Assembly: GCA_030616085.1 (NCBI GenBank)
Contig: JAUWYA010000001.1
Location: forward strand, 8,692-72,691
DNA length: 64,000 nt
Direction of reading: 5' to 3'
From: Candidatus Nealsonbacteria bacterium
GTDB lineage: Bacteria > Patescibacteriota > Minisyncoccia > Minisyncoccales > GWA2-38-27
Shown: positions 556 to 54,538 of the stretch, in pieces
How positions within the stretch are numbered: the first letter of the stretch is position 1
Layout: the number at the start of each line of letters is the position of its first letter
Position numbers and translations under genes: made by a program
The notes under the pieces: model-generated
Seen by the model: only the letters and a program-made list of their open reading frames with translations
The model's database searches: none
Told to the model about the DNA's origin: nothing

Positions 556-1329
556 ATGCCTTATTTTTCATTTGATAAAATCCAAATAGGACCGATTATT
601 CTTTATGTCTGGGGCGCATTCCTGGCTTTAGCTTTTTTATACGCTTTGTTTTTTGTTTCAAGAAAAGCAAAAAAACAAGGGATTGATACAGAAATAATTA
701 TTAGTTCTTTTTCCTGGTTAATAATCGGTACGATTATTGGAGCAAGATTAGGCTATATTATTCAGTTTTCAGATTATTATTTTTCAAAGCCAATTGAAAT
801 TCTAAAAATATGGCAAGGAGGAATGACTTTTCACGGCGGTCTTTTTGGTCTGCTGATTGCTGCTATTATTTATGCAAAGTTTGCCAAAGTTAGTTCAAGA
901 TTGTTTTTACAAATAGCAGATTTAGCTGTTTTAGCAGCTCCAATATCTATTGCTATTACAAGAGTCGGCTGTTCTTTAATTAATGATCATCAGGGAGCTG
1001 AAACATCTTTGCCTTGGGGAATTATGTGGCCAGATGGAACAATCAGGCATCCAGTAGCTGAATATCTGATTATCAGCGCATTAATTTTATATTTAATTCT
1101 AAGATTTTTAAAGCCAAAATTAACAAAACCGGGTCAATTATTTATTGTTTTTTTCTTCTTATATTCTCTTCTTCGCTTTTTCTTGGATTTTACCCGTTCT
1201 ACAGGCACTTCTTTGTCTGATCCCCGCTATTGGGGTTTATCCACAGCTCAGTGGTTATCTTTAGCTATAATTTTAGGTATAATAATAAAAAGTGTTTTTT
1301 TTAAAAAAAGCCCCGTAGAGAAAATTTGA
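556..1329 (+). CDS. lgt: Prolipoprotein diacylglyceryl transferase
   Basis: Polytopic membrane protein with Lgt-like motifs ('MTFHGGLFGLLIAAIIY', 'RFFLDF', 'TAQWLSL'), directly downstream of lspA. Confidence 0.75.
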   Translation: MPYFSFDKIQIGPIILYVWGAFLALAFLYALFFVSRKAKKQGIDTEIIISSFSWLIIGTIIGARLGYIIQFSDYYFSKPIEILKIWQGGMTFHGGLFGLLIAAIIYAKFAKVSSRLFLQIADLAVLAAPISIAITRVGCSLINDHQGAETSLPWGIMWPDGTIRHPVAEYLIISALILYLILRFLKPKLTKPGQLFIVFFFLYSLLRFFLDFTRSTGTSLSDPRYWGLSTAQWLSLAIILGIIIKSVFFKKSPVEKI

Positions 1330-1385
1330 CTGCTTACAGCATTTAGGTTTTCTTTAAGAAAACCTTGTCAAATTTTCTCTACGGG
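1311..1385. repeat. Long inverted-repeat element (CCCCGTAGAGAAAATTTGAC...GTCAAATTTTCTCTACGGGG), long variant of the CCCCGT(T)AGAGA family
   Basis: 20-bp perfect inverted arms around a ~35-nt spacer, overlapping the lgt stop. Paralogous copy at 6991-7065, related copy at 37437-37495. Confidence 0.8.
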
Positions 1386-1416
1386 GAAAGGTCGGAACTT
1401 AATTAAATTATTTATT

Positions 1417-1490
1417 ATGAACCCCGTTAGAAATTTATGTTAATTAGAATTTCTATTGGGGTAAAAATATATGAGAATTTCTAACGGGGT
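1417..1490. repeat. CCCCGTTAGAAAT inverted-repeat element (A / A'-degenerate / A' arrangement) overlapping the start of the downstream lipoprotein gene
   Basis: ATGAACCCCGTTAGAAAT ... AGAATTTCTATTGGGG ... ATGAGAATTTCTAACGGGGTG. The left arm carries a short uORF (MNPVRNLC*). The right arm overlaps the ATG of the 1471 gene and encodes 'ISNGV'. Confidence 0.8.
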
Positions 1491-1935
1491 GAAAAAAACA
1501 AAAATTTTTATTCTAATTTCGCTTTTAGCGGTTTTGGTTTTGGTTGGGGCAATGTGTACAAAAAGTCCTGAAGCTTTTTATAAGAAAGTTTGTAAAACTG
1601 CTATAGATTTTTCAGAGGAGCTGGATGATGTTCTTGACCAAGAATTTGCTCTATTAGACGGAGAAGATGATTTAGACGATTGTATGGATGATATGATTGA
1701 ACAAGAAGAAGACTTGTATGATGAATGCATGGACGAGGAGGATGATGAAGACGTATGCGATGAAGTGATTGAAAATTACCGATTAACCATAGAAAACTTT
1801 CTTACTCGTCAAGGATGTTTGATTATCTACACCTCTTATTGTTCTATGCATCAAGCAACTGGAGAGTATGAGGACTTTAATGAATGTGTAGACGATGTAG
1901 AGGAGGTCTGTAAAACACTTCCAAGGTCATTTTAG
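1471..1935 (+). CDS. Acidic lipoprotein (signal peptide + lipobox Cys 'LVGAMC'), function unknown
   Basis: N-terminus 'MRISNGVKKTKIFILISLLAVLVLVGAMC', followed by a highly acidic D/E-rich body. Paralog of 7155-7730. Confidence 0.5.
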   Translation: MRISNGVKKTKIFILISLLAVLVLVGAMCTKSPEAFYKKVCKTAIDFSEELDDVLDQEFALLDGEDDLDDCMDDMIEQEEDLYDECMDEEDDEDVCDEVIENYRLTIENFLTRQGCLIIYTSYCSMHQATGEYEDFNECVDDVEEVCKTLPRSF

Positions 1936-1937
1936 AA

Positions 1938-1978
1938 ACTAAACCCTTCATCTTTAGCTAAAAGTGAAGGGTAAAGAT
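1938..1978 (+). terminator. Hairpin after the lipoprotein gene (AAACCCTTCATCTTTA...AAAGTGAAGGGTAAAG), repeated element
   Basis: Stem CCCTTCA/TGAAGGG. A near-identical element lies at 8461-8505 after another gene. Confidence 0.4.
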
Positions 1979-1979
1979 T

Positions 1980-4601
1980 ATGAGAAAATTTAAAATTACC
2001 ATTCCGATTTTGCTTTTGGTTGTTTTGACTTTACCTGCAAATGCATTTGCTAGTACTTTATCTGAAGATATTTTCCCGAAAAACGTAAAAGGGCTTCCTT
2101 TAGCTGAGACTGAAGAGCAAAAGCCAGAAGGAGAAATTGCTGAGGCTTATTGGGCTTTTTACGGGACTGATGATTCAGAAACAGAGATTCTGGTTTTCTT
2201 TTCCAGAATAGAAGGTGAAGAATATCTTAGAACAGCAGTAGAGGATTTTATTGCAGGATTTGAATATGAGACAGTCCAGACATTTGACGGCGTTGAACGT
2301 GAAGATCCGTATGAAGTTTATGTAAAAGATTATAAAGCTACACTTGTTACTTATCGCTTTTATTACTTAGGAGTATATTTTGATGCCGGCCTTGCATTAG
2401 TAGTTGTGGATGATTATTTCATTGCTGTTGAGATGCTTAGTTATACTGGAGAACCTCCTTCTTTTTCAGACCTAAAAGATGTTTTAGGTCTTTTTATTGA
2501 TCAGGTTCCTGGAGAAAAGCCAATTTGCGGCAATACTTATTGTGAACAGGGAGAAACCTGTTCAAATTGTCCCCAGGATTGCAATGCTTGCCAAGAGCTT
2601 TTGCCTGATTTAGAAGTTTCATTTTCAGAAAAGAACATCAAGCTTGAATTAGGAGGAAGCACTACACTTAAGTTAAATATTAAAAATATTGGTCAGGGCA
2701 GGGCTGAAGATGTCTATTACAAAGTTCATGTTGACAAGCCAGAAGTTGTAGATGTTTATCCTCTTCAGGGAACAGTAGGGAATATAGATCCAGGCGAGGA
2801 ATTTTATGATTATATAGGTATTGCAGTTAAAGGTTCAGGCACTGCCTATTTAGCTATTCATATTAGAGGTGATAATATCGGCAGCATGATGAAGTTTATT
2901 CAGGTTAGCGTTCCTGAAGCAGCTGCTTTAGATGTGCCAGAGTCCTTGTTTTTACTGCCAGGTGAATCTCAAGGAATTAGTGTTTTCTTAACTAATGCCG
3001 GTGAAGAGCCAATTCTGGTTGAGGTTTTATCTTTAAAAAGCTTGGATCCTTCAGTAGTTTCTATTGAAGAAGGTTCAGAAATGACAGTAAGCGGCCAAAA
3101 AGGAGGAATTAGACAAGACCAGGTTATTAGCACTGAAAGCATTGATATTACTAACGCTATTTATCCAAAACCAAGAATTAAAGCTAATTCAATAGGAGAT
3201 ACTGAGCTCGTTTTCAAACTTTTATACTATTTTCCAGAGATTTCTATGCATGAAGGCAAGACATTGGAAAAGAGAGTAAAAGTAGGAGTAGGAGAGTCAG
3301 TAGGAGGGGAAAAGCCAGGATTAGAACTTAAGCTAAAGCCGTCTGGCCTGGCTGTAGAAAGGGATGAAGCCAGGAAAGTTGAAGTGATTTTAAACAATAC
3401 TGGAAGCGAGGTAATTAAACAGGGAAAGATTCTTCTTAGCGTTTCCAGAGAAGCTCCGTTTAATGCAACCAGAGAAATAACTTTTGGCTTTATTCGACCA
3501 GGCAGGGAAGCTAAGGCTGAAATTGAGATTATTGGCCATGCTCAATTTCCATCTGGCTTGCAGGGTGATGACTTAGTAGTTACCGGGACTTTAACTTTTA
3601 AAGGCCAGTTTACTACTTTGGATGACAGAGAATTTACTTTTGAAGAGGAGATGAAGGTTTCCTTGGTGGGAGAGAGAGAAAAATGCGACGTTGCAAATGC
3701 TGGATGCATGGAAACAGTTGATTGTTTTGTTTCTCTTTCCAATGAAATGGGCTGTGCTCTTGAGTTTGCTGATGTTGTTCCATATTTTGACAAACCAGTA
3801 GCTGTTGTCTTAGCTACTTCTGATGTATGCGAGATAAAAGACAGGGTAGAGGCAGGAGATCCTATTGGAGCTGCTGTATCCAGTCTTTTAATGACAGTTG
3901 ATTTAGGAGATAATGCTCTTGATGCAGTTCCCGGAGCAGGCAATATATTAGGTGTTTTAACAGATATAGTAGAAGGTTCAGCAGATTGCGTTGAAGGATT
4001 TATCTACGATGCAGTAAATGATTATTGCGCAGGAGGCAGAGGAGGTTATACTGGCTGCGCTAATCGTTTATTTGGATTAATTGCTGAAGAATCAGATAGA
4101 TGGAAAGAGTCGAGATCAGCTACGCATTCAGTAGTAGCTATTGGAGGTTCGCCAATAAGATTATCTGTGATTGATGATAATGGCCAGGAATTAGGTTTGT
4201 CTGACGGAGTCTTAGTTATAGAAAAAGAAGATTTGAAGCTGGTATTTATTAAGAATCCTGAAGAGTTGGACAATGGGTATAATTTCCAGATTAATGGAAT
4301 TGGCGAGGGTACTTACGATTTAGACATTGGCTTGATTTCTGATGGAGAGGTTGTTGAAACAGTTGAGCTTAGAGACCAGGAAATTAATTTAGATGAGGAA
4401 GTTTCAATTCCTTTGGCTGTTAAAGCAGAAGATGGTGAATTAACAGATCTATTTGTTGGTGATGAGGCAATAGAATTTAAAGAAGAGCAGGAAAGAAAAC
4501 CATTAATTCTTTATATAATAATTGGCATAGGTGCTGTTCTGGTTGTCATTATCGCTGTAGTAGTAGTTATAGTTTTAATCAAGAAAAGGAAAAAAACTTA
4601 G
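1980..4601 (+). CDS. Large secreted/surface protein (873 aa) with an N-terminal signal peptide and a C-terminal TM anchor followed by KKRKK
   Basis: Signal peptide 'ILLLVVLTLPANAFA'. Cys motif 'CGNTYCEQGETCSNCPQDCNAC'. C-terminal 'ILYIIIGIGAVLVVIIAVVVVIVLIKKRKKT'. N-terminal ~180 aa are paralogous to 26623-28194. Confidence 0.6.
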   Translation: MRKFKITIPILLLVVLTLPANAFASTLSEDIFPKNVKGLPLAETEEQKPEGEIAEAYWAFYGTDDSETEILVFFSRIEGEEYLRTAVEDFIAGFEYETVQTFDGVEREDPYEVYVKDYKATLVTYRFYYLGVYFDAGLALVVVDDYFIAVEMLSYTGEPPSFSDLKDVLGLFIDQVPGEKPICGNTYCEQGETCSNCPQDCNACQELLPDLEVSFSEKNIKLELGGSTTLKLNIKNIGQGRAEDVYYKVHVDKPEVVDVYPLQGTVGNIDPGEEFYDYIGIAVKGSGTAYLAIHIRGDNIGSMMKFIQVSVPEAAALDVPESLFLLPGESQGISVFLTNAGEEPILVEVLSLKSLDPSVVSIEEGSEMTVSGQKGGIRQDQVISTESIDITNAIYPKPRIKANSIGDTELVFKLLYYFPEISMHEGKTLEKRVKVGVGESVGGEKPGLELKLKPSGLAVERDEARKVEVILNNTGSEVIKQGKILLSVSREAPFNATREITFGFIRPGREAKAEIEIIGHAQFPSGLQGDDLVVTGTLTFKGQFTTLDDREFTFEEEMKVSLVGEREKCDVANAGCMETVDCFVSLSNEMGCALEFADVVPYFDKPVAVVLATSDVCEIKDRVEAGDPIGAAVSSLLMTVDLGDNALDAVPGAGNILGVLTDIVEGSADCVEGFIYDAVNDYCAGGRGGYTGCANRLFGLIAEESDRWKESRSATHSVVAIGGSPIRLSVIDDNGQELGLSDGVLVIEKEDLKLVFIKNPEELDNGYNFQINGIGEGTYDLDIGLISDGEVVETVELRDQEINLDEEVSIPLAVKAEDGELTDLFVGDEAIEFKEEQERKPLILYIIIGIGAVLVVIIAVVVVIVLIKKRKKT

Positions 4602-6983: not shown

Positions 6984-6990
6984 TATAAAC

Positions 6991-7065
6991 CCTGTAGAAG
7001 AAATTTGACTGCCTTTGAGATTTAGGTTTTCTTTCAGAAAATCTTGTCAAATTTTCTCTACGGGG
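6991..7065. repeat. Long inverted-repeat element, paralog of 1311-1385
   Basis: CCCTGTAGAAGAAATTTGAC...GTCAAATTTTCTCTACGGGG. Confidence 0.8.
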
Positions 7066-7100
7066 TAAAGGTCGGGAATTTAGTAATTTTTGTTTAAGTT

Positions 7101-7174
7101 ATGAGCCCCGTTAGAAATCTTTGTTAATTAGAATTTCTATCGGGGTAAAAATCTATGGAAATTTCTAACGGGGT
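7101..7174. repeat. CCCCGTTAGAAAT inverted-repeat element (A / A'-degenerate / A'), paralog of 1417-1490
   Basis: ATGAGCCCCGTTAGAAATC...AGAATTTCTATCGGGG...ATGGAAATTTCTAACGGGGTG. uORF MSPVRNLC*. The right arm overlaps the ATG of the 7155 gene. Confidence 0.8.
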
Positions 7175-9165: not shown

Positions 9166-9525
9166 ATGAAACAAGAAACCATAAAATTAATAATTTTTTC
9201 AACAGTAATTGGCGTAGTTTTTATTGCTTCTTTGTTTTTGATTATTCAACAAGAGCAAGCATTAAGCAGACAATTAAGAGCTACGGTTTTTCCATCAGAA
9301 AAAATATTGGGAAAGCAAATTACTAAAGATTTAACAGGAAAACTTACAGGGCAGATAGAGAGAAAGATTTTATCAGATTGTCTTGATGAGGCCAAAAATG
9401 CTTTTGAGGATCTTTGGAATCAAGAATGCGAAGACAAAGGATTAGAAGAAAAGTGTGATTTGCCCAAAGATATTGCTTCTGATTTATTGAATGGATATCA
9501 GGAGCTTAAACAGGGGTGTTATTAA
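9166..9525 (+). CDS. Small signal-anchored protein, unknown
   Basis: N-terminal TM 'LIIFSTVIGVVFIASLFLII' and four Cys in the C-terminal part. Confidence 0.3.
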   Translation: MKQETIKLIIFSTVIGVVFIASLFLIIQQEQALSRQLRATVFPSEKILGKQITKDLTGKLTGQIERKILSDCLDEAKNAFEDLWNQECEDKGLEEKCDLPKDIASDLLNGYQELKQGCY

Positions 9526-37432: not shown

Positions 37433-37436
37433 TGAC

Positions 37437-37495: not shown

Positions 37496-37497
37496 GT

Positions 37498-38067: not shown

Positions 38068-38151
38068 GCCCCGTAGAGAAATTTCGAAAAACCCCTACAG
38101 GGTAATAATAAGAATTTCGGAGAAATTCTTAATTCGAAATTCTTCTACGGG
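38068..38151. repeat. Long-variant inverted-repeat element (CCCCGTAGAGAAATTTCG...CGAAATTCTTCTACGGGG)
   Basis: Lies directly upstream of the ATG at 38153. Confidence 0.75.
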
Positions 38152-38152
38152 G

Positions 38153-39277: not shown

Positions 39278-39330
39278 GTGTTGGCGGTATCGGATACCGC
39301 CAGAGCCTGGCGGTATCCGATACCGCCAAC
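39278..39330. repeat. REP doublet in opposite orientations (TTGGCGGTATCGGATACCGCCAGAGCCTGGCGGTATCCGATACCGCCAAC)
   Basis: REPIN-like pair between the sigma factor gene and the downstream gene. Confidence 0.85.
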
Positions 39331-39405
39331 AAGGGATATCCGATAAGTGTAATATAAGTGTAATATAGGTGTAACAAAAGGCCCATTTTCTCGTCTTAAT
39401 TATAT

Positions 39406-40152: not shown

Positions 40153-40163
40153 ATAACAAAAGT

Positions 40164-40192
40164 GTTGGCGGTATCCGATACCGCCAACACAA
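40164..40192. repeat. REP palindrome (GTGTTGGCGGTATCCGATACCGCCAACAC)
   Basis: After the anti-sigma-like gene. Confidence 0.85.
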
Positions 40193-40364
40193 ATCCATAT
40201 CATCGTTAATCTTAGTTTTTTGAGTGGTTGACGCCAAGTCACCCCAATTAGAAATTGAAAATTTCTAACGGGACAAATAAAATTTTTATGCTCAAAAGAC
40301 CAAGACAGAAAAGTCGATTAATGATTAAGTAAATTATTAATTAACAAAAACACAGATTAAAAAA

Positions 40365-43922: not shown

Positions 43923-46274
43923 TTAAGGCAAAGTTTTAAGAAAGTCCTCTATATTTTGACGTGATTCGGGTGATAATTCCAAAACAATCATTGCTTGTTC
44001 CCTGGCTTTGTCATATTCTCCCAATTCTCTATAAATGTATGCTAAAGAAGCATGATATTGGAAATTCTCTGGGTTTACATGTATTATTAATCTTTCATAA
44101 ACATCAGCTAATCTTTGATAACATTCTATCTTGTCTTTAATATCTTCAATTGTTTCAAGCGCTTTTATATAAGCTTGCTGCAATTGAACAAGAGATTTGC
44201 CTGAGTTAATATTGTATTTCATTTTAATTGATATAGCTATATTTTCATCAGCTTGTTCAAGTTCGCCTAAATAAATATGAGCCAGAGCTTTTTTCCACCA
44301 ACAATGGGTTAGTTTCGGATTTAAATTAATACATTGTTCTGCTTTGAGCTTAACTCCTTGATAGTTTCCAGAAAGAAAGTCATTTTCTATCCAGCCAAGA
44401 AAGACTTCTTCGCGTTTAGGGTTTAATTCATAAGCTTTTTGATAGCAAGCATCAGCTTCTTTTATTAATTCTTCAACATTTTCTATTTTGAAAGCTTCTT
44501 TGTTTTCAATCAAAACATTTAAATAGTTTCCAAGAGAAATCCAGGTTCTGGTATGATAGGGTCTCATTTCTTTTACTTCTCTTAAGATTTCAACTGCTTT
44601 TGGCGCTAAGACATATTTTCTCTCTATATTTTCTCTAAGGCAATTTCTAATAACATTAATATACTGTAATCTTACATAAGCATCTATATTGCTGCGCAGA
44701 GACAAAACATTATCTATTCTTTCTAAAGCTTTTTCGCATTGGTTATTTTCTGAATAATGATTAGCCCAATTTATTTCCTTATTAACGCTTAATGGTTTTA
44801 AACCAGCAAACCAAATAAACAAAATTAATACGCAAAACAAACCAAGCATAATCCCATATTTCCATAATCTAGAGCTATCCGAGACCCGGTCTTTGCAAGT
44901 TAACAGAGACCCGGTCTCTGTAAGCTCATTATTTTTTCTAATAAGAAACAAAGAATAAGCAATTATTAAAAACAAAATAAGGTAAGTAGAAAAACTATCA
45001 AAGCTGAAGAAATTAGCTGTTAAATAACCAACAAAAACAGCTTGAATCCCATGATAGATTAATTTATCATCAGGATTTTTCTTCTTAAGTTTTTGCAATT
45101 GCCAAAATAATGTAGCAAAAAGCGAAAGATAGATTATTAAAGCGGGAATACCTGCTGTAACTGCAGTTTCAAGCATAAAATTATGAGCCCTGTCCCACCA
45201 AGTCCCGCTTTCTCTATAAATATTAGGCAAAGAGGGGTCATAATATTTATCAAAAGCAATTGATATGTTTTCCGGGCCATAGCCAAGAATAGGCCTTTCT
45301 TTCAGCGATTCCAAAAGTATTCGCCAGCCAGAAAATCTTGGGTCTTCTAAAACTAAATTAATTGAAAGACGAGAGGAAACCTGTTCGACTATTTTATTTT
45401 CTTGCAAATAATCAGGAAGTTTAGGGTTAGTATTTAAATAGTAAACTCCATAAGCGCTTATGATTAATAGAATTCCGAGTAAAATTTTCACCAATAGAAA
45501 CAAGGTTTTTCTTTTTGCATGAACCAAATTTACAGAGTACAAGAAAAAAAAGTAAAAAGAGCCAACTAATAAACCAAAATAAGCTGCTCTGGTTCCAGTG
45601 ATGAGAATAACATAAAGAAACATTAAAAAAGCAGAAAAATAAAAAATTCTTTTTAAAAGATTTTTTTCTTTAATTGCAAAAACTAAGACCAAAAAAACAA
45701 GAAGGATCAAATAAACGGCCAAAAGAATAGGCGAGCCCATTGTTGCCGGAGGTCTTCCTGTGTGGGGGATAAGATATTCTTTGAAAACCTCAAAATATTG
45801 AAAGATGGCCATAATTGAGGCTAAGACGCCGATAATCAAAGTAAAATCCCAGATTTTCTGCCAATCTTTCTTTTTAATAATCAAAAAAGCTAAAATAGCA
45901 AAAATTATATAAAGAGAAAAGTTTAAAAACCCGCCTGCCCTATAAGGTGAGCCCCAGAAACTAAAATAAGGATTCAAAGAAAAAATGGTTGCTAAGAGGA
46001 AAATTCCCCAAAGAGCGAGCAAAAGCCACCAGGTCATTCGACCTGGTGCCCCGTCGGATGACGGGGCAAAAACTGAAGAAATTTTAAAGTTTATCTGAAT
46101 TTTCCCAGAAATAATCTTCCAAATAAGAAAGAAAAGCAAAATAGAAACTATAATTCTAAAAACAAGAGCTTTTCCCCATGGAGCTGGATGAAACCAAGGA
46201 GGAGCAGCAAGCAAGGGCAAAGCTAAAATCACGAAAAAGGCAATTAGAAAAAAATTATAATTTTTATTATTCAT
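43923..46274 (-). CDS. O-antigen ligase/polymerase (Wzy_C) family membrane protein with a C-terminal TPR domain
   Basis: Polytopic N-terminal domain ('WGIFLLATIFSLNPY...RAGGFLNFSLYII'), periplasmic-loop 'WWDRAHN', C-terminal TPR repeats. In-frame mini-palindromes at 44891-44935 and 46040-46057. Confidence 0.6.
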   Translation of the reverse strand: MNNKNYNFFLIAFFVILALPLLAAPPWFHPAPWGKALVFRIIVSILLFFLIWKIISGKIQINFKISSVFAPSSDGAPGRMTWWLLLALWGIFLLATIFSLNPYFSFWGSPYRAGGFLNFSLYIIFAILAFLIIKKKDWQKIWDFTLIIGVLASIMAIFQYFEVFKEYLIPHTGRPPATMGSPILLAVYLILLVFLVLVFAIKEKNLLKRIFYFSAFLMFLYVILITGTRAAYFGLLVGSFYFFFLYSVNLVHAKRKTLFLLVKILLGILLIISAYGVYYLNTNPKLPDYLQENKIVEQVSSRLSINLVLEDPRFSGWRILLESLKERPILGYGPENISIAFDKYYDPSLPNIYRESGTWWDRAHNFMLETAVTAGIPALIIYLSLFATLFWQLQKLKKKNPDDKLIYHGIQAVFVGYLTANFFSFDSFSTYLILFLIIAYSLFLIRKNNELTETGSLLTCKDRVSDSSRLWKYGIMLGLFCVLILFIWFAGLKPLSVNKEINWANHYSENNQCEKALERIDNVLSLRSNIDAYVRLQYINVIRNCLRENIERKYVLAPKAVEILREVKEMRPYHTRTWISLGNYLNVLIENKEAFKIENVEELIKEADACYQKAYELNPKREEVFLGWIENDFLSGNYQGVKLKAEQCINLNPKLTHCWWKKALAHIYLGELEQADENIAISIKMKYNINSGKSLVQLQQAYIKALETIEDIKDKIECYQRLADVYERLIIHVNPENFQYHASLAYIYRELGEYDKAREQAMIVLELSPESRQNIEDFLKTLP

Positions 46275-46294: not shown

Positions 46295-49036
46295 CTAAGG
46301 AAGAGATTCTAAGAATTCATCTATTTTTTCTCGCCCATGTGTTTTTGGTATTGAATATTGCCAAGCAATGAGGGCTTTTTGTTTTGCTTGGTCATATTCT
46401 TTTATTTCGTAATGAAGATGCGCTAAATTAAAATATAAAGTTCTTAAAAAATTATTTGCTTTTTCTCGAGATTTGGTGTCCGGTGTTGAATATTGCCAAG
46501 CAATTAGACCTTGTTGTTCTGCTTGTTTGAAGTTTTGTGTTATATTATAAGCTTGAGCCAAATAAAAATGATATTGGAAATGGTCATTGTCTAAATCTAA
46601 TATTGATTTAAAGAACTCTTCCGCATCTCCTAATAAGTCCGGAAACAATCTTACTATGTTTAAGGCTCGGTCTCTAGCTTTATCATATTCTCCTATTTCT
46701 TTATAAATGTATGATAAAGAAGCATGATATTGGAAACTTTCTGGGTCTGCCCACGCTATTAATCTGTCATAAACATCAGCTAATCTTTTGTAGATTTCTA
46801 TAAAAAGTTCTTCGTTTTTATCTTCATTTTCAATTGATTCAAATAATTTCATATAAGCTCTTTGTAATTTAAAAAGATTTTTGTCTGAGTTAATATTGTG
46901 CCCCATTTTAATTGATATAGCCATATTTTCATCAGCTTGTTCAAGTTCATTCAAATAAATATGAGCCAGAGCTTTTTTCCACCAGCAGTGTGCTAATTTC
47001 GGATTTAAATTAATGCATTGTTCTGCTTTTTCTTTTGCTGTTTGGTATTTTCCAGAAATAAAGTCACTTTCTATCCAACCAAGAAAGACTTCTTCACGTT
47101 TAGGGCTTAATTCGTGAGCTCTTTGATAGCAAGCATCAGCTTCTTTTTCTAATTCTTCAACACTCTCTATTTTAAGGATGTCTTTGTTTCCAATCAAAAT
47201 ATTTAAATAGCTTCCAAGAGAAATCCATGTTCTGGTATAATTAGGCCTTAGGTCTTTTAATTCTCTTAAGATTTCAACTGCTTTTGGGGCTAAGACGTAT
47301 TTTCTTTCCATATTTTGTTCTAGGCAATCTTTAATAATATCAAGATATTGAAGCCGGACATAAGTGTCTACAATGCTATGCGAAGAAAGAATACTGTCTA
47401 TTTTTTCTACTGCTTTTTCACACTGTTTTCTTTCTGAATAATAAATAGCCCAATTTAATTCTTTATTAATCTCCAAGGGTTTTAAAGCTCCAAGCCAAAT
47501 AAACAAAACTAATACACAAAATAGTCCAAATATTAATCCAGATTTCCACAGAGGACTATCAGAGACTGGGTCTCTGTTGATTAACAGAGACCGGGTCTCT
47601 GTAAGCTCATTATTTTTTTGAATAAGAAATAAAGAATAGCCAACTAAAAGAAAGAAAATTAGATAAGTAGAAAAACTATCAAAACTGAAAAAATTAGCTG
47701 TTAAATAACCAATAAAAACAGCTTGAATTCCATGGCAGATTAAAGCATCATTAGGATTTTTTGTTTTTAGTTTTTGTAATTGCCAGAATAATGCGGCAAA
47801 AAGAGAAAGATAGATTATTAAAGCGGGAATGCCTGCTTCAATTGCAATATCAAGTATAAAATTATGGGCTCTATCCCACCAAATGCGGGATAATCCTGGA
47901 AGACGAGGGTCATAATGTTTATCAAAAGCTACTGAAAAATTTTCTGGACCCCAACCAAGAATAGGTCTTTCTTTTATTGCCTCAATACTAACTTTCCAGG
48001 CAGAGAAACGCGCTTCTTCAAAGATTAATTCAAACGAAAGCCGAGGGGCAATTGTTTTTAATGTTCTGTTATTTTCAACAAATTCAGGAAGCTGGTCTTG
48101 TGTATTCACAAAGTAAATACTGCCAACAATTAAAAATAAGGCAATGACAGTTATAATTTTTAGTAAAAGTATTTTTTTTGAGCGGTTTTTTACCCCGTTA
48201 GAGATTTGTTTATTTTGTGGTTCTTCTTTTTTTTGGTAACCTCTAACGGGGTACAAGAGAAAGAAATAAAGAAAACCAATTATTAAGCCGAGATAAACAG
48301 CTCTGGCTTTTATGATTAGAATAACAAAAATAAACAATGCGATTACTGAAAAATAAAAGAATTTTTTTAGATATTTTTTTTCTTTTACCCCGTTAGAGAT
48401 TTGTTTATCTTGTGCTTTCTCTTTATTCTCAGAATCTCTAACGGGGTTTAAACCAAAAGATAAAGCTAAAAATACTAAGAACAAAAGATACATAGCTAAG
48501 AATATTGAATTTCCAAAACTTGCTGCAGGTCTTCCTGTAGAGGAGATAAGATATTCTTTGAAAACCTCAAAATATTGAAAGATGGCCATAATTGAGGCTA
48601 AAGCACCGATAACTAAAGTAAAGCCCCAGATTTTTTGCCAATCTTTTTTTCTGATAATCAAAAAAGCCAAAATAGCAAAAATTATATAAAGAGAAAAGTT
48701 TAAAAACCCGCCTGCTCTATATGGAGATTCCCAAAAACTGTAATAAGGGTCTTTAGAAAAAATAGTTGCTAAGAGGAAAATTCCCCAGAGGGTTATCAAT
48801 AACCAGAAAGGCCAGAAAACCTTATTTTTTCTATCTAATAAATCCTTAAAATTTATCTTGATTTTTTTAGAAATAATCTTCCAAATAAGAAAGAAAAGCA
48901 AACTAGAAACTATAATTCTAAAAACAAGAGCTTTTCCCCAGGCAGCTGGATGAAACATAGGAGGAACAGCAAGCAAGGGCAAAGCTAAAATCACAAAAAA
49001 AGCAATTAGATAGATTTTATAGGACTTGTTATCCAT
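46295..49036 (-). CDS. Paralogous O-antigen ligase (Wzy_C)-TPR protein, with two in-frame IR-element insertions
   Basis: ~70% identity to 43923 in the membrane core. IR elements at 48192-48252 and 48388-48446 encode 'KQISNGVK...'. Longer TPR tail. Confidence 0.6.
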   Translation of the reverse strand: MDNKSYKIYLIAFFVILALPLLAVPPMFHPAAWGKALVFRIIVSSLLFFLIWKIISKKIKINFKDLLDRKNKVFWPFWLLITLWGIFLLATIFSKDPYYSFWESPYRAGGFLNFSLYIIFAILAFLIIRKKDWQKIWGFTLVIGALASIMAIFQYFEVFKEYLISSTGRPAASFGNSIFLAMYLLFLVFLALSFGLNPVRDSENKEKAQDKQISNGVKEKKYLKKFFYFSVIALFIFVILIIKARAVYLGLIIGFLYFFLLYPVRGYQKKEEPQNKQISNGVKNRSKKILLLKIITVIALFLIVGSIYFVNTQDQLPEFVENNRTLKTIAPRLSFELIFEEARFSAWKVSIEAIKERPILGWGPENFSVAFDKHYDPRLPGLSRIWWDRAHNFILDIAIEAGIPALIIYLSLFAALFWQLQKLKTKNPNDALICHGIQAVFIGYLTANFFSFDSFSTYLIFFLLVGYSLFLIQKNNELTETRSLLINRDPVSDSPLWKSGLIFGLFCVLVLFIWLGALKPLEINKELNWAIYYSERKQCEKAVEKIDSILSSHSIVDTYVRLQYLDIIKDCLEQNMERKYVLAPKAVEILRELKDLRPNYTRTWISLGSYLNILIGNKDILKIESVEELEKEADACYQRAHELSPKREEVFLGWIESDFISGKYQTAKEKAEQCINLNPKLAHCWWKKALAHIYLNELEQADENMAISIKMGHNINSDKNLFKLQRAYMKLFESIENEDKNEELFIEIYKRLADVYDRLIAWADPESFQYHASLSYIYKEIGEYDKARDRALNIVRLFPDLLGDAEEFFKSILDLDNDHFQYHFYLAQAYNITQNFKQAEQQGLIAWQYSTPDTKSREKANNFLRTLYFNLAHLHYEIKEYDQAKQKALIAWQYSIPKTHGREKIDEFLESLP
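48192..48252. repeat. CCCCGTTAGAGAT...CTCTAACGGGG inverted-repeat element inside the Wzy-TPR CDS
   Basis: TACCCCGTTAGAGATTTGTTTATTTTGTGG...GGTAACCTCTAACGGGGTAC. Confidence 0.8.
48388..48446. repeat. CCCCGTTAGAGAT...ATCTCTAACGGGG inverted-repeat element inside the Wzy-TPR CDS
   Basis: TACCCCGTTAGAGATTTGTTTATCTTG...AGAATCTCTAACGGGGTT. Confidence 0.8.
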
Positions 49037-49856: not shown

Positions 49857-50030
49857 AAGCATTTTAAAAATGGATGGGAAAGTTCGGTGAAAATCCGAGA
49901 CTGTGCCGCAACTGTTAAAGTCAGAATACCATCCGCACAATATTAACTTCTTTTCTTCGAGCTAAAGAGAAAGATTAACCCGCCAAAATTTAGGCGGGAT
50001 AATCTCTTTCACTCGAAAAGAGATTTTTTA
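49857..50030 (+). ncRNA. Cobalamin (B12) riboswitch with a terminator-type expression platform
   Basis: GGATGGGAAAGTTCGGTGAAAATCCGAGACTGTGCCGCAACTGTTAAAGTCAGAATACCATCC matches the cobalamin aptamer core (GGGAA, GGTGAAAATCC, CCGCAACTGT, B12-box-like AGTCAGAATACCATCC). Downstream hairpin AATCTCTTTCACTCGAAAAGAGATTTTTT ends 5 nt before the ATG. Confidence 0.7.
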
Positions 50031-50034: not shown

Positions 50035-51858
50035 ATGAAAATAAAAAAGAAAATTTTAATTGTTTATTTAGCCATACTTTTAGCTGTCTTAATTGGATTG
50101 GGTAATTTTTTTGAAGTTTGGTCAGAAAGCCAATCAGAAATTGATAAAGCTATAAACTATCTTAAAGCTCAGCCTCAAACCGCCTGGGCCACTATGGCTT
50201 TGGCCGGAGCTGGAGAAACCGAGATTGATTTAAATCATCTAAAATCTGTTCCTTCTGGCCAAGAGTCAGCTACTACCTATGCAAAGTATATTTTAGCTTT
50301 AGTAGCAGTTGGCAAGAATCCCTCTAATTTTGGAGATGAAAATTATGTAGAGAAACTAAAAAGTTTTTATCAAGATGGGCAATTCGGTGAGAAAAATTTT
50401 ATTAATGATGATATTTGGGCAATTTTAGCCTTGGCTTCAATTGGTCAGAAAAATTTAGCAATAGTTCAGGATGCCAAAGATTATATTTTGAGCTATCAAA
50501 ATTCAGACGGAGGATGGAGTTATGATATTTCTTTTTCCTCTTCTGATACCAATGATACTGCTGCTGCCATTATGGCCCTGCTTGAAGCAGGAGTTTCTTC
50601 TTCTTCATCAGCTATCCAGAATTCTATTAGTTTTTTGAAATCTCAACAAAATGATGATGGTGGATTTTCTTATCTTGCAGATTCGCTTTCCGATTCTTGC
50701 TCTGATGCCTGGGTAATTTCAGCTATTTATAAATTGGGACAGGATCCTTTCAGCTCAAATTGGACAAAAAATGGGAAAAACGCTTTAGACCATCTCAAAT
50801 CTTTACAAGATGAAGATGGCGGTTTCTGGTGGCAATCTGAAGGGGATAACAAATTTTGCAGTTCTTATGCTTTGGTTTCCTTATTAATGAAGTATTATCC
50901 GATTGAAACAATTTATAATAAGCATCACTTAAGAATTGAAGATCAGGATAGCACTATTTGTGATACTGAGATTAATGGCGGCACTGCTATGGATTTGATA
51001 ATTAGAGGTTCGGAGATATGTAATTACGATTACTTAATTAGTGAGTATCCTGGAATAGGTCTTTATTTGGCAGAAATAAATGGTCAGGCCAACTGGATGT
51101 ATATGGTAAACAATATTTCTCCTATGATAGGAGCAGATAGCTATTACTTAGAAACTGGAGATGAGGTTTTATGGTTTTCTGGAGCATGGTTAGAGAAAGG
51201 TTGGTTTCCAACTAAGCTTGAATTATTTAAAACCGAAAATTTAGCCACTTTTCAAGTAAAATATTACGATTCCGCAGCTAATAATTGGCAAAATTTAGAA
51301 ATACAAGGAATAAAAGTAAAGATTGGCGAGTCAGAATTTATTACTAATGATACAGGACAAATTGAAGTTTCTTTAACAGGTTTAGAAGCTGGTTTTTATC
51401 AGGTATTTGTTGAAACCCAGATTATTGATGAAAAAGGTTATATTAGAAGTGAAAAAGTAAATTTAACAACTGGAGAAGTTCCTAAAGAACATGGAGTGGG
51501 ATTAAAAGTAGAGATTGAAAAAATAGAAGTTCCTCCTGGAGGAGAACAAGAAGCAATTAGTTTTTCAGTAAGTTCAGATAGTTTGGATTTCGGAAAATTA
51601 AAACCAGGAGAAAGCTCTACTCAAAATTTGACCATTGACAATGGAGAGAGTAGAATTTATTTAGAAGCGGAAGTAAATGGAGCTAGTGTTTTTCAAGACA
51701 ATTTAGAAATAGATGAAAAATTTTGGCAATTTTTCTCAACTGAAATTGAGAAAAACCAAGAGAAGTCTTTCCCAGTCAAATTAACTATCCCATTTAATTA
51801 TGATGGAGATTTTGGCCAACAAGAGGGGGAATTAACTTTTTGGGCAATTAAAAAATGA
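50035..51858 (+). CDS. Secreted alpha/alpha-toroid (prenyltransferase/terpene-cyclase-like repeats) + DUF4430 protein; transcobalamin-like architecture, candidate extracellular B12-binding protein
   Basis: N-terminal TM. Repeats 'SDGGWSYD', 'NDDGGFSYL', 'DEDGGFWWQ'. DUF4430-like 'INGQANWMYMVNNISPMIGADSYYLETGDEVLWFSGAW'. C-terminal beta-rich region. Confidence 0.55.
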   Translation: MKIKKKILIVYLAILLAVLIGLGNFFEVWSESQSEIDKAINYLKAQPQTAWATMALAGAGETEIDLNHLKSVPSGQESATTYAKYILALVAVGKNPSNFGDENYVEKLKSFYQDGQFGEKNFINDDIWAILALASIGQKNLAIVQDAKDYILSYQNSDGGWSYDISFSSSDTNDTAAAIMALLEAGVSSSSSAIQNSISFLKSQQNDDGGFSYLADSLSDSCSDAWVISAIYKLGQDPFSSNWTKNGKNALDHLKSLQDEDGGFWWQSEGDNKFCSSYALVSLLMKYYPIETIYNKHHLRIEDQDSTICDTEINGGTAMDLIIRGSEICNYDYLISEYPGIGLYLAEINGQANWMYMVNNISPMIGADSYYLETGDEVLWFSGAWLEKGWFPTKLELFKTENLATFQVKYYDSAANNWQNLEIQGIKVKIGESEFITNDTGQIEVSLTGLEAGFYQVFVETQIIDEKGYIRSEKVNLTTGEVPKEHGVGLKVEIEKIEVPPGGEQEAISFSVSSDSLDFGKLKPGESSTQNLTIDNGESRIYLEAEVNGASVFQDNLEIDEKFWQFFSTEIEKNQEKSFPVKLTIPFNYDGDFGQQEGELTFWAIKK

Positions 51859-51940
51859 GCCCCGTTAGAAATCCAAAAAAGATTCTAAAGGGGAAATATT
51901 ATGCTTCAAAAACTCAGAAATTCTAAAATTTCTAACGGGG
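51855..51940. repeat. CCCCGTTAGAAAT...ATTTCTAACGGGG inverted-repeat element overlapping the stop of 50035 and the start of 51901
   Basis: ATGAGCCCCGTTAGAAATCC...AATTCTAAAATTTCTAACGGGGTG. The right arm encodes 'KISNGVRK'. Confidence 0.8.
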
Positions 51941-52485
51941 TGAGAAAAATTCTATTAATCTTAATAATAATTTCTTTTTTAGCTGCTAATTCTGTTCAAG
52001 CGGTGGCAGTTAAAGTTAAGCCATCTGAAATAAAAATTGAAGCCAATGCAGGAGTTTTGATTGAACATGAAATAATAATAGAAAATCCGGGTGAAAACGT
52101 AGCTTTGTTTGAAGTTTATTTAGACAATTTTTCTGATTGGATCAAAGCAAAACCAGAAAGTTTTGTTTTAGAAAGTGGAGAAATGCAAAAAGTAATTTTA
52201 GAAATTAAAAATGAAGAGATAGGGGTCTTTTCTACTATGATTTCAGTAGTAGCTAAATCTTTATCTGAAAGGAAGTTTAAAGCCAATTCCGGAGTGAAAA
52301 TCCCCTTGGAAATTAGAGTTATTCAAAGAGAGGAATCAAATTTTTTAGCTGCTGTTTCCCAAAACATTAAAAGATTTTTGGATTCAAGGAGCTTAATTTT
52401 TGTTTTTAGCATAATTTTAGTTTTGGTTTTAGCCATAATTTGCATAAAGAGGCGTAAGAGCATATTAAAAGATGAACCCCGTTAG
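51901..52485 (+). CDS. Bitopic membrane protein (N-terminal and C-terminal TM), unknown
   Basis: 'ILLILIIISFLAANSVQA' and a C-terminal 'LIFVFSIILVLVLAIICIKRRKS'. Confidence 0.35.
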   Translation: MLQKLRNSKISNGVRKILLILIIISFLAANSVQAVAVKVKPSEIKIEANAGVLIEHEIIIENPGENVALFEVYLDNFSDWIKAKPESFVLESGEMQKVILEIKNEEIGVFSTMISVVAKSLSERKFKANSGVKIPLEIRVIQREESNFLAAVSQNIKRFLDSRSLIFVFSIILVLVLAIICIKRRKSILKDEPR

Positions 52486-52755
52486 AGATTAGCGATATGT
52501 TTTATACTTACGTAATACAAAGCAAAAAAGACAGAAAATGGTACACTGGCTATACTGAAGATTTACGGAAACGCTTTAATCAACATAACTCTAATGAGGT
52601 TTATTCAACAAAAAATAGAGGACCGTTTGAGCTAATTTATTATGAAGTATGTTTAAATTCACAAGATGCAAGGTCAAGAGAAAAATATTTAAAAACTGGG
52701 ATGGGAAAGCGCTATCTTAAAAATAGATTAAAGCGTTTCCTATCTCTAACGGGGT
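52472..52755 (+). mobile_element. Candidate full-length member of the CCCCGTTAGAGAT IR family: the IR arms bracket a GIY-YIG nuclease gene exactly
   Basis: Left arm ATGAACCCCGTTAGAGATTAG (52472-52492). Right arm CCTATCTCTAACGGGGTG (52738-52755), which encodes the protein C-terminus 'FLSLTG*'. Confidence 0.4.
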
Positions 52756-52757
52756 GA
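52497..52757 (+). CDS. GIY-YIG nuclease-family small protein (YhbQ/UPF0213-like)
   Basis: 'FYTYVIQSKKDRKWYTGYTEDLRKRFNQHN' is the GIY-(x10)-YIG + R...E/N arrangement. 86 aa. Confidence 0.7.
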   Translation: MFYTYVIQSKKDRKWYTGYTEDLRKRFNQHNSNEVYSTKNRGPFELIYYEVCLNSQDARSREKYLKTGMGKRYLKNRLKRFLSLTG

Positions 52758-53248
52758 AAAAAAATATTAAAATAATTATATGGATTGGAATATTTCTAAT
52801 TTTAGTTGCTGGAATAATTTTTACCCCGTTTAGAGATTATATGACAGGGCTAAAAAACAGAGCAGACAAATCTCTAACGGGGTTTATCTTTCAAGACAAA
52901 GTTGATCTTGAAGAGGAATCTAATAATCAAGTATTAGAAGAAAGCACAATAAGCGTAATTTTAATTATTGATTATGGCGATGGAATCTCTCAAGACTTTG
53001 ATATTGAGTTTGTTGAAGGAATGACCGCCTTTGATTTGTTAAATGATAGGGCAGAGGAATTAAGCTTGGAAACAAAAGCATATGACATTGGAATTCTTAT
53101 AGAGGCAGTTGGGGATAAAAAGAATGGACAAGATGGAAAATATTGGCTATATTATATAAATGGAGAGATGCCTATGGTTTCAGTTGATAATCTGAAAATT
53201 AACCCTGACGATAAAGTAGAATTTAAATTTGAGAAATCACCATTTTAA
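52754..53248 (+). CDS. Signal-anchored DUF4430-domain protein, with an in-frame IR-element insertion
   Basis: 'GKYWLYYINGEMPMVSVDNLKINPDDKVEFKFE' is DUF4430-like. IR element 52823-52883 encodes 'TPFRDYMTGLKNRADKSLTGF'. Confidence 0.5.
   Translation: MKKNIKIIIWIGIFLILVAGIIFTPFRDYMTGLKNRADKSLTGFIFQDKVDLEEESNNQVLEESTISVILIIDYGDGISQDFDIEFVEGMTAFDLLNDRAEELSLETKAYDIGILIEAVGDKKNGQDGKYWLYYINGEMPMVSVDNLKINPDDKVEFKFEKSPF
52823..52883. repeat. CCCCGTTTAGAGAT...ATCTCTAACGGGG inverted-repeat element inside a CDS
   Basis: TTACCCCGTTTAGAGATTATATGACAGGG...CAAATCTCTAACGGGGTT. Confidence 0.8.
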
Positions 53249-53280
53249 TGTATAATAAATGTATAATAAGTGTATAATAT

Positions 53281-53826
53281 ATGTCTAAAAAATTAGAATT
53301 TGCTATTGCTATAATTTTTATTTTGGTAGGAGTTAGTTTGCGGCTTCTTCCTCATGCTCCTAATTTTGCGCCAATTGCTGCAATAGCTCTATTCGGAGGA
53401 GTTTATCTTTCAAGAAAAACAGCTCTTATTCTGCCAATAGCAGTAATGATGATTTCAGATATTTTTATTGGCAGTTATGGAATTAAATTAATGGTTTTTG
53501 TTTATGCCAGTTTTTTAATTTGCGTGCTTTTGGGTTTTTGGTTGAAAAAACATAAGAAGTGGCAAATAATCTTAGGAAGTTCTATTTTATCTGGTATTAT
53601 CTTTTTCATTTTGACTAATTTTGCTGTTTGGATTTTTACTCCCTGGTATGCTAAAACTCTTTCCGGCATAGTCCAATGTTATGCAATGGCTCTACCATTT
53701 TTCAGAAACACTTTATTGGGAAATATATTTTATGTAGGCGCGTTTTTTGGAAGTTACGAGATAATAAGAGTTTGGATTAAAAAGAAGTTTGAAAACGAAG
53801 AAAAAGCCCTTGTTCACCCCGTTTAG
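53281..53826 (+). CDS. Small polytopic membrane protein (5-6 TM), possibly an ECF-type S-component-like substrate-capture protein
   Basis: 181 aa, all hydrophobic helices. 'LRLLPHAPNFAPIAAIALFGGVYL'. Last gene of the riboswitch-led cluster. Confidence 0.35.
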   Translation: MSKKLEFAIAIIFILVGVSLRLLPHAPNFAPIAAIALFGGVYLSRKTALILPIAVMMISDIFIGSYGIKLMVFVYASFLICVLLGFWLKKHKKWQIILGSSILSGIIFFILTNFAVWIFTPWYAKTLSGIVQCYAMALPFFRNTLLGNIFYVGAFFGSYEIIRVWIKKKFENEEKALVHPV

Positions 53827-53905
53827 AGAGTGTTCGACACCGAGTGTCGAACATTTCTAATGTCTAACGAAATATGAAGGTTCGACCTTCATATTTTTTT
53901 CAATC
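53816..53905 (+). other. Degenerate IR element with a perfect internal palindrome (GTGTTCGACACCGAGTGTCGAACAT), followed by terminator ATGAAGGTTCGACCTTCAT + T7
   Basis: ACCCCGTTTAGAGAG...TTTCTAATGTCTAACG, then hairpin + TTTTTTT. Confidence 0.5.
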
Positions 53906-54025
53906 ACGGGAAAAGGTCGCTCCTTGAGAAGGAGTGGAGCGAAGCGAAACGACGGGAAAGGTGCGACCTTGAGGAGTGATTTGATTTTAGGTTAAAAAAG
54001 AGTTAACCTGAAAGTAGATAAATCT

Positions 54026-54403
54026 ATGAAAAAGAAATTTATAACCTTAAAAAAATATCAAAAAATTATAGAACCGGGGGAGGAATTAAGTTATGGTAAC
54101 AAGTCTCCATTTGATTCAATAAATCTTCCATCTTGCAAGGGTGTTTTTATTGCTTGGCATGGGCCACAGGTCTTAGTTAATGGTAATACTGGTACAGCTT
54201 ATGTTTGTAGATCAGATGTCAAAGATCCAAAACCTTTAAACTTTGATGTTTATTCTATCCGCCAGACTAAAGATCCGGGAATTATTGAAATCACAACTTC
54301 TCTCAAGCAAAAATATCATTGGGCAGATGATGTCCCAGATATCATGAAAGGATCTGTTCCAGAATGGGTAAAAGAGAAAATCGCGAAAATTAAAAAGATA
54401 TAG
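54026..54403 (+). CDS. Hypothetical protein
   Basis: 125-aa ORF. Confidence 0.3.
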   Translation: MKKKFITLKKYQKIIEPGEELSYGNKSPFDSINLPSCKGVFIAWHGPQVLVNGNTGTAYVCRSDVKDPKPLNFDVYSIRQTKDPGIIEITTSLKQKYHWADDVPDIMKGSVPEWVKEKIAKIKKI

Positions 54404-54479
54404 ATTGCGTTAAGCTTAGCTTAACGCAAAACTAGGCTCGGCCTCTCTAATTTAAGTTTGATACTCATTGATACCTATT

Positions 54480-54538
54480 GACCCCGTTTAGAGATAAATC
54501 TCTAACGGGGTTGACACCCTCTCTTGGGTGTTTTAATA
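54480..54538 (+). promoter_or_regulatory. Minimal IR element (two 15-bp arms, 2-nt spacer) whose 3' arm supplies the -35 of promoter TTGACA-17-TAATAT
   Basis: GACCCCGTTTAGAGATAAATCTCTAACGGGGTTGACACCCTCTCTTGGGTGTTTTAATAT. -35 at 54510-54515, -10 at 54533-54538. Confidence 0.55.

Follow-up and report, generated by a model that had tools for sequence, protein, structure and literature searches.

Ssn proteins are stand-alone GIY-YIG nucleases of approximately 94 amino acids; they recognize hairpin repeats on either side of the gene that encodes them and cut the adjacent single-stranded DNA (ssDNA; Chenal et al. 2025, Nat Commun, PMC11893778). The authors of that study noted an architecture that resembles insertion sequences (IS) and an analogy with repetitive extragenic palindromes and the RAYT transposases (REP/RAYT); they also list Rickettsia among the genera rich in the SRM repeat, and describe SsnA of Neisseria with its repeat NTS (dRS3/NTS; PMC11893778). 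The main text of the paper contains no mention of 4-bp duplications, empty sites, insertions within open reading frames (ORFs), targeting of start codons or Patescibacteria (PMC11893778). The DNA analyzed here, called the window, is a stretch of 64,000 nucleotides from Candidatus Nealsonbacteria bacterium (contig JAUWYA010000001.1, positions 8,692 to 72,691), a member of the Patescibacteria. It harbors 16 short, non-coding inverted repeats of 29–94 bp each and a 278-bp element that encloses the gene of an 86-residue GIY-YIG nuclease. There is strong support for these repeats being mobile miniature elements that have recently moved in this lineage, and a substantial chance that they belong to a new class of nuclease-driven transposon. 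[quoted passage not shown]

The repeats were located by searching both strands of the window for the arm CCCCGTTAGAGAT with at most two mismatches, with 100 shuffled sequences as the control. In total, 24 arms were found, compared with 0.65 expected by chance and a maximum of four in the shuffles. Pairing of these arms, both computationally and by reading of the sites, yields 17 inverted-repeat elements that sum to 1307 bp, or 2.0% of the window. Thus, the high-density family of inverted repeats put forward in the original prediction is real, although it lumped together two related families. The first, Fam1 (13 elements), follows the pattern ACCCCGTTAGAGAT...ATCTCTAACGGGGT, with termini (A)CCCCGTTAGAGAT and ATCTCTAACGGGG(T), arms of 13–14 bp and lengths of 29–278 bp, whereas the related but distinct Fam2 (four elements) has 20-bp arms, CCCCGTAGAGAAAATTTGAC. 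The spacers between arms range from 2 to 252 nt, and the termini are the only sequence that the short copies have in common. As single strands, the elements fold into stems of 14–20 bp, with z values of −2.9 to −10.8 relative to shuffled controls.

Two kinds of evidence speak for mobility. Direct repeats of 4 bp flank 14 of the 17 copies, 11 of them at a fixed offset and three after a 1-nt adjustment of the boundary; the repeated 4-mers are TGAA, TGAG, TTTA, TTGA, AAAG and TAAA, and the probability of a chance identity is about 0.006 per copy. In addition, orthologous metagenome contigs, obtained by means of neighboring proteins, are syntenic with 49–57 kb (L001–L003) and with 0.5–15 kb (L242–L244) of the window. 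These contigs, together with L004 and a paralogue of the Wzy gene, provide precise empty sites for ten copies (1311, 1422, 6990, 7106, 9624, 48388, 51860, 52477, 52824 and 54482), each of which holds one copy of the 4-mer. This set includes both Fam2 copies tested (1311 and 6990) as well as the nuclease-bearing copy. Arms of either family are completely absent from L001–L004 and L242–L245, while a third lineage (L246–L248) has the copies at 7106 and 9624, and consequently presence and absence vary among the relatives. The insertions are recent, since all ten are missing from contigs with approximately 90% or more nucleotide identity over the aligned stretches. The MITE-like mobility that had been proposed is therefore borne out by presence/absence polymorphism and target-site duplications in the relatives. 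In effect, the repeats have what characterizes MITEs: terminal inverted repeats (TIRs), duplications with empty sites, a small size with many copies, and a longer coding element with the same termini. Nevertheless, this coding relative makes a nuclease and not a recognized transposase.

The 17 copies, designated hereafter by their first position, are the following:

1311-1386, unstranded: Fam2, 76 bp, 20-bp arms, TSD AAAG; inside the 3′ end of lgt, where it replaces the C-terminus of Lgt (empty site in L242, AAAAAAAGGTCGGAAC)
1422-1489, unstranded: Fam1, 68 bp, TSD TGAA, with a third, degenerate arm inside at 1449-1461; at the start codon of a lipoprotein gene, whose new N-terminus is MRISNGVKK (the empty site in L242, TTATTTATGAAAACAAAAG, encodes MKTKVF)
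6990-7065, unstranded: Fam2, 76 bp, TSD TAAA; missing in L242/L243
7106-7173, unstranded: Fam1, 68 bp, TSD TGAG, inner arm at 7133-7145; at the start codon of a PsbP-like lipoprotein gene, N-terminus MEISNGVRK; not in L242/L243 (site ATGAAAAAATTAAAG), present in L247/L248
9624-9682, plus strand: Fam1, 59 bp, TSD TTTA; in frame at the N-terminus of a trypsin-like protease, adding 21 codons (the ORF reads KGFTPLEI...SLTGF); exactly 63 bp missing in L242/L244 (protease of 337 versus 359 aa), present in L246/L247
24141-24198, unstranded: Fam1, 58 bp, intergenic, TSD TTGA (TTGAC...)
28196-28289, unstranded: Fam1, 94 bp, TSD TGAA, on an ATGA stop/start overlap; the start of the ORF downstream is now the in-element ATG at 28247 (...ISNGVKNK)
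37222-37289, unstranded: Fam1, 68 bp, TSD TTGA, TTGACA at its right side; variant arms (..AGAAGC) and a GC-rich spacer of nested hairpins, a spacer type that recurs in other phyla
37436-37497, unstranded: Fam2, about 62 bp, TSD TTGA after a 1-nt boundary shift
38069-38152, unstranded: Fam2, 84 bp, at the ATG of a gene for a DeoR-type helix-turn-helix (HTH) protein, with ATG on both sides
40243-40273, unstranded: Fam1-like, degenerate short hairpin in which no clear TSD was seen; no counterpart in L004
48193-48251, minus strand: Fam1, 59 bp, in frame in the Wzy-TPR gene, with imperfect flanks (TTTA/TACA), because of which it is probably an older copy
48388-48446, minus strand: Fam1, 59 bp, TSD TTTA, in frame within Wzy-TPR (LNPVRDSENKEKAQDKQISNGV), whose ORF reads NPVRD...ISNGV two times; the L004 orthologue and the paralogue at 43923-46274 both lack exactly these 63 bp (21 aa)
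51860-51940, unstranded: Fam1, 81 bp, TSD TGAG, on an ATGA stop/start overlap within the operon of a B12 riboswitch; 85 bp missing in L001-L003, whose genes overlap by ATGA
52477-52754, plus strand: Fam1, 278 bp, 13-bp arms CCCCGTTAGAGAT and ATCTCTAACGGGG, flanks TGAA/TGAA; encloses the nuclease gene and sits at the ATGA(A/G) start codon of a DUF4430 gene; 282 bp missing in L001-L003, where a single TGAG is left
52824-52882, plus strand: Fam1, 59 bp, TSD TTTA, in frame in the DUF4430 gene (the ORF reads FTPFRD...SLTGF); 63 bp missing in L001-L003 (145 aa versus 164 aa here)
54482-54510, unstranded: Fam1, minimal copy of 29 bp with arms about 2 nt apart, TSD TTGA, fold energy −11.5 kcal/mol; within a TTGACA -35-like box; 33 bp missing in L001-L003 (empty site CCTATTGACACCC)

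These correspond to the copies that had been listed before, with two corrections. The DUF6580 gene ends in a lone arm-like stretch at 53816, which aligns with ACGCCGAATAG in relatives, ordinary C-terminal coding sequence; to judge from this alignment, it is probably not a bona fide copy. In addition, 52472 and 52738, which had been counted as copies, correspond to the two ends (52477-52489 and 52742-52754) of the single 278-bp element, whose nuclease gene had been overlooked.

The nuclease ORF (52497-52757, plus strand) has 86 codons and starts 8 nt past the left arm. The right arm itself encodes the final five residues, L-S-L-T-G, and the TGA stop of the ORF is part of the flanking TGAA duplication. 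The protein consists of a GIY-YIG domain (PF01541, 2.7e-16) with no other domain, and it is the only GIY-YIG protein in the window. More than 6,462 homologues were found at E ≤ 1e-5 in a search of 5.8 billion proteins. The best 120 of these are 76–90% identical to it, nearly all are 86 aa long and almost all end in ...GMGKRYLKNRLKRFLSLTG (RFLSLTG). Since the end of the ORF is embedded in the right arm and this C-terminus is conserved, the nuclease gene and the termini travel together. For instance, the independent loci L005–L007 read ATGAA, then TCCCGTTAGAGAT...ATCTCTAACGGGA, then TGAA, and the gene calls of some homologues are extended at the N-terminus by MNPVRD, which is the translation of ATGAACCCCGTTAGAGAT, that is, of the left arm and its flank. 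The confident AlphaFold model (predicted local distance difference test, pLDDT, of 93) shows a bare GIY-YIG fold with a C-terminal helix. Among solved structures, it comes closest to that of BH0048, a UPF0213 protein (E 7.6e-8), and to Slx1 and At-HIGLE, which are structure-selective nucleases; I-TevI ranks much lower. A tblastn search of plasmids gave a single match, yazA of B. subtilis.

Elements with the same termini are widely distributed. A scan of one genome per GTDB species, with the termini 25–55 nt apart, found short copies with identical termini in at least 113 stretches from at least six phyla. The hosts belong to many classes of Patescibacteria and to Omnitrophota, Planctomycetota (including Ca. 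Scalindua rubra), Nitrospirota (on a 1.7-Mb contig), Elusimicrobiota/Endomicrobia and Cloacimonadota, and also include a gammaproteobacterial metagenome-assembled genome (MAG). Among the matches listed, 83 of 118 short copies have a perfect 4-bp duplication, compared with 9.8 expected if the two flanks are drawn independently from the observed flank distributions, and the favored duplications are TTTA, TTCA, TCAA and TAAA, that is, T-N-N-A. The possibility that the flanks are extended inverted repeats was rejected, as inverted matches number 3 among the short copies listed versus 8.4 expected. The spacers are of unrelated types (purine-rich of 33 nt, GC-rich double hairpins, AT-rich of about 53 nt); conservation is confined to the termini, which is what recognition by an enzyme acting in trans would predict. 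A second scan, of metagenomes with the termini 240–270 nt apart, gave at least 120 stretches, and nuclease ORFs are present in 116 of the 121 matches listed. Copies with the nuclease and short elements with the same termini both occur in Patescibacteria, Omnitrophota, Planctomycetota and Nitrospirota. By contrast, transport of the family by phages is not evident: 2.9 million viral contigs contain no nuclease-bearing copy and one short copy, at 556-609 of L241 (IMG/VR UViG_3300031898_000117).

Some other genomes also carry many copies. In an Omnitrophota MAG, three copies are found within 530 bp (L054, 5948-6473), and one Saccharibacteria MAG has matches on five separate contigs (L017, L032, L043, L051 and L070). 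Consequently, the high density that had been regarded as unusual is not unique to the organism of the window.

The insertions affect host genes in several ways. Five Fam1 copies, including the one with the nuclease, are at ATGA(A/G), and in the three checked directly this sequence is, in the relatives, the start codon of the host gene (MKTKVF, MKKLKF, MRK...), which in places overlaps an upstream stop. After the insertion, the left ATG is orphaned and opens an upstream ORF (uORF) of 6–23 codons. At the right junction, GGGG joined to TGAR creates a GTG in the original frame, and all four short copies at start codons also supply an in-frame ATG from within the element, which explains the N-termini M(R/E)ISNGV(K/R)K. 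The earlier proposals on these sites thus need correction. The short uORFs do exist, but the ATGA(A/G) at their beginning is the original start codon of the host and not a contribution of the left arm. Similarly, start codons and the n-regions of signal peptides are donated by the element as a consequence of insertion, whereas most start codons existed before it and were regenerated by the duplication. At such sites, the stop of the upstream gene is preserved by the duplication, and a start codon, ATG or GTG, forms again at the junction. Among the metagenomic nuclease copies listed, 48 have ATG as the junction codon and 18 have GTG. An ORF of at least 60 codons starts exactly at the junction codon in 57 of the 103 listed, compared with 3 and 6 in the other frames; the usual location of the nuclease element is therefore the start codon of a host gene, where the nuclease stop and the regenerated start overlap (ATGA).

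A similar correction applies to promoters. The TTGACA box at 54510, which had been attributed to the arm, is already present in the empty sites of the relatives, and the TTGA duplication restored it. The copies at 24141 and 37222 probably entered pre-existing TTGA boxes as well, as suggested by their TTGA flanks.

The claim that copies insert in frame into intact ORFs stands for the protease, the Wzy-TPR gene (two copies) and the DUF4430 gene, each of which gains 63 bp, that is, 59 bp of element and 4 bp of duplication. The arms are open in two of the three frames, and a 63-bp insert keeps the same two frames open at both of its ends; the in-frame copies occur with the strand that encodes hydrophilic residues as the coding one. 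Elsewhere, the length including the duplication is divisible by three in 74 of the 118 copies listed, versus one third expected, and for the listed copies within long ORFs this is true of nearly all. The 57-bp type, for instance, reads as hydrophilic peptides (xPVRD...ISNGV or TPLEI...SLTG). The sites where copies survive are mainly ATGA(A/G) starts or overlaps, TTGA in promoter-like boxes, and positions inside genes where the frame is kept.

We consider it probable that the short repeats, of 29–94 bp, are non-autonomous derivatives of a compact element that codes for the nuclease, with the nuclease as the likely driver of their movement. The full element, of which the 278-bp copy is an example, has TIRs of 13–14 bp (N-CCCGTTAGAGAT) around the single 86-codon gene of a stand-alone GIY-YIG nuclease; the elements insert with a 4-bp target duplication, preferably at T-N-N-A. 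The nuclease would recognize the termini, most likely as a hairpin or cruciform formed by the paired arms, in analogy with Ssn and with Slx1/UPF0213. The breaks that it makes would mobilize its own element and, in trans, the short copies, and repair or ligation by the host would complete the joining. Nuclease-bearing copies thereby act as parasites of the host's translation signals: the ribosome-binding site and ATG of the host would open either a short uORF or the nuclease ORF, and the stop of the nuclease overlaps with the regenerated host start.

Several observations weigh against this mechanism. GIY-YIG enzymes are hydrolytic nucleases for which, to our knowledge, no strand-transfer activity is known, and this chemistry does not account for the joining step or for the origin of the 4-bp duplication. 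The link between the nuclease and the termini is, moreover, drawn from sequence. Of the 109 nuclease copies listed, the duplication is perfect in 40 (versus 14.5 expected), and many have TTTA at the left and TGAA at the right. In copies flanked by TGAA on both sides, the right TGAA could be the element's own stop codon instead of a duplication. A displacement of the duplication by this TGAA stop was considered as an explanation and rejected, as other offsets are not enriched. Finally, a nuclease gene is found within 8 kb at only 1 of the 113 listed loci with short copies.

More tentatively, the 278-bp unit might be a fully autonomous transposon with the 86-residue GIY-YIG protein as its sole enzyme, which would make it a new class of prokaryotic DNA transposon and the smallest known. 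If this were the case, such a transposon would have spread over at least six phyla, would hijack translation signals by targeting start codons, and would have spawned MITEs that are neutral to the reading frame.

It is unlikely, in our view, that these are ordinary MITEs moved in trans by a conventional transposase, for instance a DDE enzyme of the IS5 or IS701 type, with the GIY-YIG gene as a passenger or a homing-type selfish gene in one MITE lineage. TIRs with 4-bp duplications are a classic signature of DDE enzymes, and those of the IS5 and IS701 types typically give duplications of this length. The lack of strand-transfer chemistry in GIY-YIG nucleases fits this explanation too, as do the absence of a perfect duplication in over half of the nuclease-bearing copies listed and the presence of one nuclease gene for 16 short copies in 64 kb. 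Nevertheless, a DDE transposase was not found among the approximately 50 window ORFs scanned against Pfam, which are not all of its ORFs, and the only transposase-like match in Pfam is a Y1 HUH domain, of a type that leaves no duplication and is tied to a different palindrome. No larger element with the termini of these repeats was seen either, although no systematic search for one was made. In addition, the nuclease ORF and both termini are conserved together across phyla, with the end of the ORF within the right terminus.

There is a similarly small chance that the protein is a domesticated, Ssn-like ssDNA endonuclease of the host that controls incoming or replicating DNA at hairpin sites, as has been proposed for SsnA and NTS of Neisseria; the repeats would then be the sites that it recognizes, and their spread a by-product or a past event. 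The architecture is like that of NTS-ssnA-NTS, since a nuclease of one domain occurs with hairpin repeats that are dispersed. Moreover, the window holds one copy of the nuclease, and the strong conservation of the protein in its best 120 homologues extends across phyla. By contrast, the ten insertions missing from close relatives indicate ongoing mobility and not fossils, insertion inside ORFs and on start codons is the behavior of a parasite, and one 9.8-kb metagenome contig holds two nuclease copies. In any case, a domesticated and a mobile nuclease are not mutually exclusive. Lastly, that the palindromes are conserved regulatory sites, such as operators of one regulator, terminators or attenuators, is very improbable: they do form stable hairpins, often between genes near promoter-like TTGACA boxes, but the empty sites with target duplications effectively refute this explanation, and copies inside ORFs, spacers of such variable length, stems without a following T-run and identical termini in at least six phyla also argue against it.

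These findings have several implications. Patescibacteria are regarded as having streamlined genomes with little mobile DNA, yet 2% of this window consists of recently inserted palindromic elements, which rewrite start codons, the N-termini of signal peptides, C-termini and internal loops of proteins. For annotation, this means that gene callers give many CPR genes a wrong start at codons of the element (MNPVRD..., M.ISNGV...), and that the nuclease is labeled 'excinuclease ABC subunit C'. If the nuclease is the mobilizing enzyme, a new transposition chemistry would operate on an element of just 278 bp, which could also offer a compact, sequence-specific DNA tool.

Other observations on the window touch the loci described above. 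The genome uses the standard genetic code (table 11), has a G+C content of about 34% and has Candidatus Nealsonbacteria as its nearest named relatives; an alternative code with TGA as a sense codon was rejected, as the ORF structure is normal under table 11. Of the known RNA families, the only match in the window is an AdoCbl-II (B12) riboswitch at 49861-49941, and the repeats match none. The riboswitch is upstream of an operon (50035-53826) with prenyltransferase-like, DUF4430 and DUF6580 genes, which has received three insertions in 1.1 kb, including the nuclease gene, with a fourth (54482) just downstream; the nuclease may thus be transcribed under riboswitch control. Compared with L001–L003, the DUF4430-DUF6580 spacer also has a 16-nt tandem duplication of the unit TGTATAATAA (TATAAT-like) at 53249-53280. 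Straight after the arm-like sequence in which the DUF6580 gene ends begins a stretch of approximately 640 bp (about 53830-54465) that is missing in the same three contigs; it contains two terminator-like hairpins and a 125-aa ORF (54026-54403) that matches nothing in Pfam. Both Fam2 copies tested lie directly upstream of one leader of about 40 nt, (A)AAGGTCGG(A/G)A...ATGA (1387-1421 and 7066-7105), which relatives keep at both loci without the element (L242, around 4160-4200 and 9370-9400); this suggests either that Fam2 prefers AAAGGTCGG as a target or that the two loci have undergone gene conversion. A toxin-antitoxin pair, an MNT-type nucleotidyltransferase and a HepT ribonuclease, is encoded at 23432-24072, directly upstream of the copy at 24141. 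Finally, the Wzy-TPR gene contains a palindrome pair, CAGAGACTGGGTCTCTG / CAGAGACCGGGTCTCTG, at 47560-47601, where its paralogue and L004 are similar (ETGSLL/ETRSLL region).

With regard to known systems, the family joins three topics: MITEs, selfish DNA inserted in frame as in Rickettsia, and GIY-YIG hairpin nucleases of the Ssn type. The bacterial MITEs that are known are derivatives of IS elements that encode DDE transposases; in Correia elements, the TIRs measure 26 bp and the duplication is TA. The repeats of the window share TIRs, TSDs, small size, many copies and effects on neighboring expression signals with Correia elements of Neisseria, RUP and MITEAba12. They differ from Correia elements in their TIRs of 13–14 bp, their 4-bp TNNA duplication and their sole coding relative, a 278-bp GIY-YIG element. 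The original likening to Correia elements fits the shared features but not the TIRs and the duplication, while the resemblance to Rickettsia palindromic elements (RPEs) holds for in-frame insertion. Both are short, palindromic, selfish elements found in frame in protein genes, with a tolerated additional peptide. RPEs, compared here by description only, differ in sequence and hosts, and the present family has 13–14-bp termini, a 4-bp duplication and a candidate nuclease gene with the same termini.

The association of a hairpin repeat family with one small nuclease gene flanked by repeats is also seen in the REP and bacterial interspersed mosaic elements (BIMEs) linked to RAYT. In this case, however, the enzyme is of another class (Y1 HUH), and neither REP/RAYT nor IS200/IS605 has target duplications or TIRs. 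The window probably contains a second, independent hairpin-repeat system of this REP/RAYT-like kind. Copies of the palindrome TGGCGGTATC(C/G)GATACCGCCA bracket an ORF at 31615-32481 (plus strand) that encodes a transposase domain of the IS200-like Y1 (HUH) type (Pfam, 8.3e-9); the palindrome is found at 418-456, 31694-31714, 31901-31921, 32480-32514, 39279-39331 and 40163-40192. Homing GIY-YIG genes such as those of I-TevI and Seg are likewise selfish nuclease genes located between or within host genes. By contrast, homing enzymes have added DNA-binding domains, a single conserved target allele and a spread by gene conversion without TSDs, and lack TIRs and miniature derivatives; in line with this, I-TevI is only a weak structural match to the nuclease model.

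By analogy, the closest known system is the Ssn/NTS association of nuclease and repeat. In each of the two, the nuclease is a stand-alone GIY-YIG protein with a length of about 90 aa, and its gene is associated with a dispersed, hairpin-forming repeat. The 86-aa protein is only a possible member of Ssn: by sequence and fold, its nearest characterized relatives are UPF0213 and Slx1, and the motif of the present repeats is unrelated to the SRM consensus HGTCWY...RNCYNB, which has 0 matches in the window. In addition, the gene lies here between the two arms of one inverted repeat, whereas an Ssn gene lies between two complete hairpins. The IS-like nature proposed for Ssn nucleases had previously been without evidence of mobility; for the present family, by contrast, 4-bp duplications, empty sites and insertions both within ORFs and at start codons are demonstrated.

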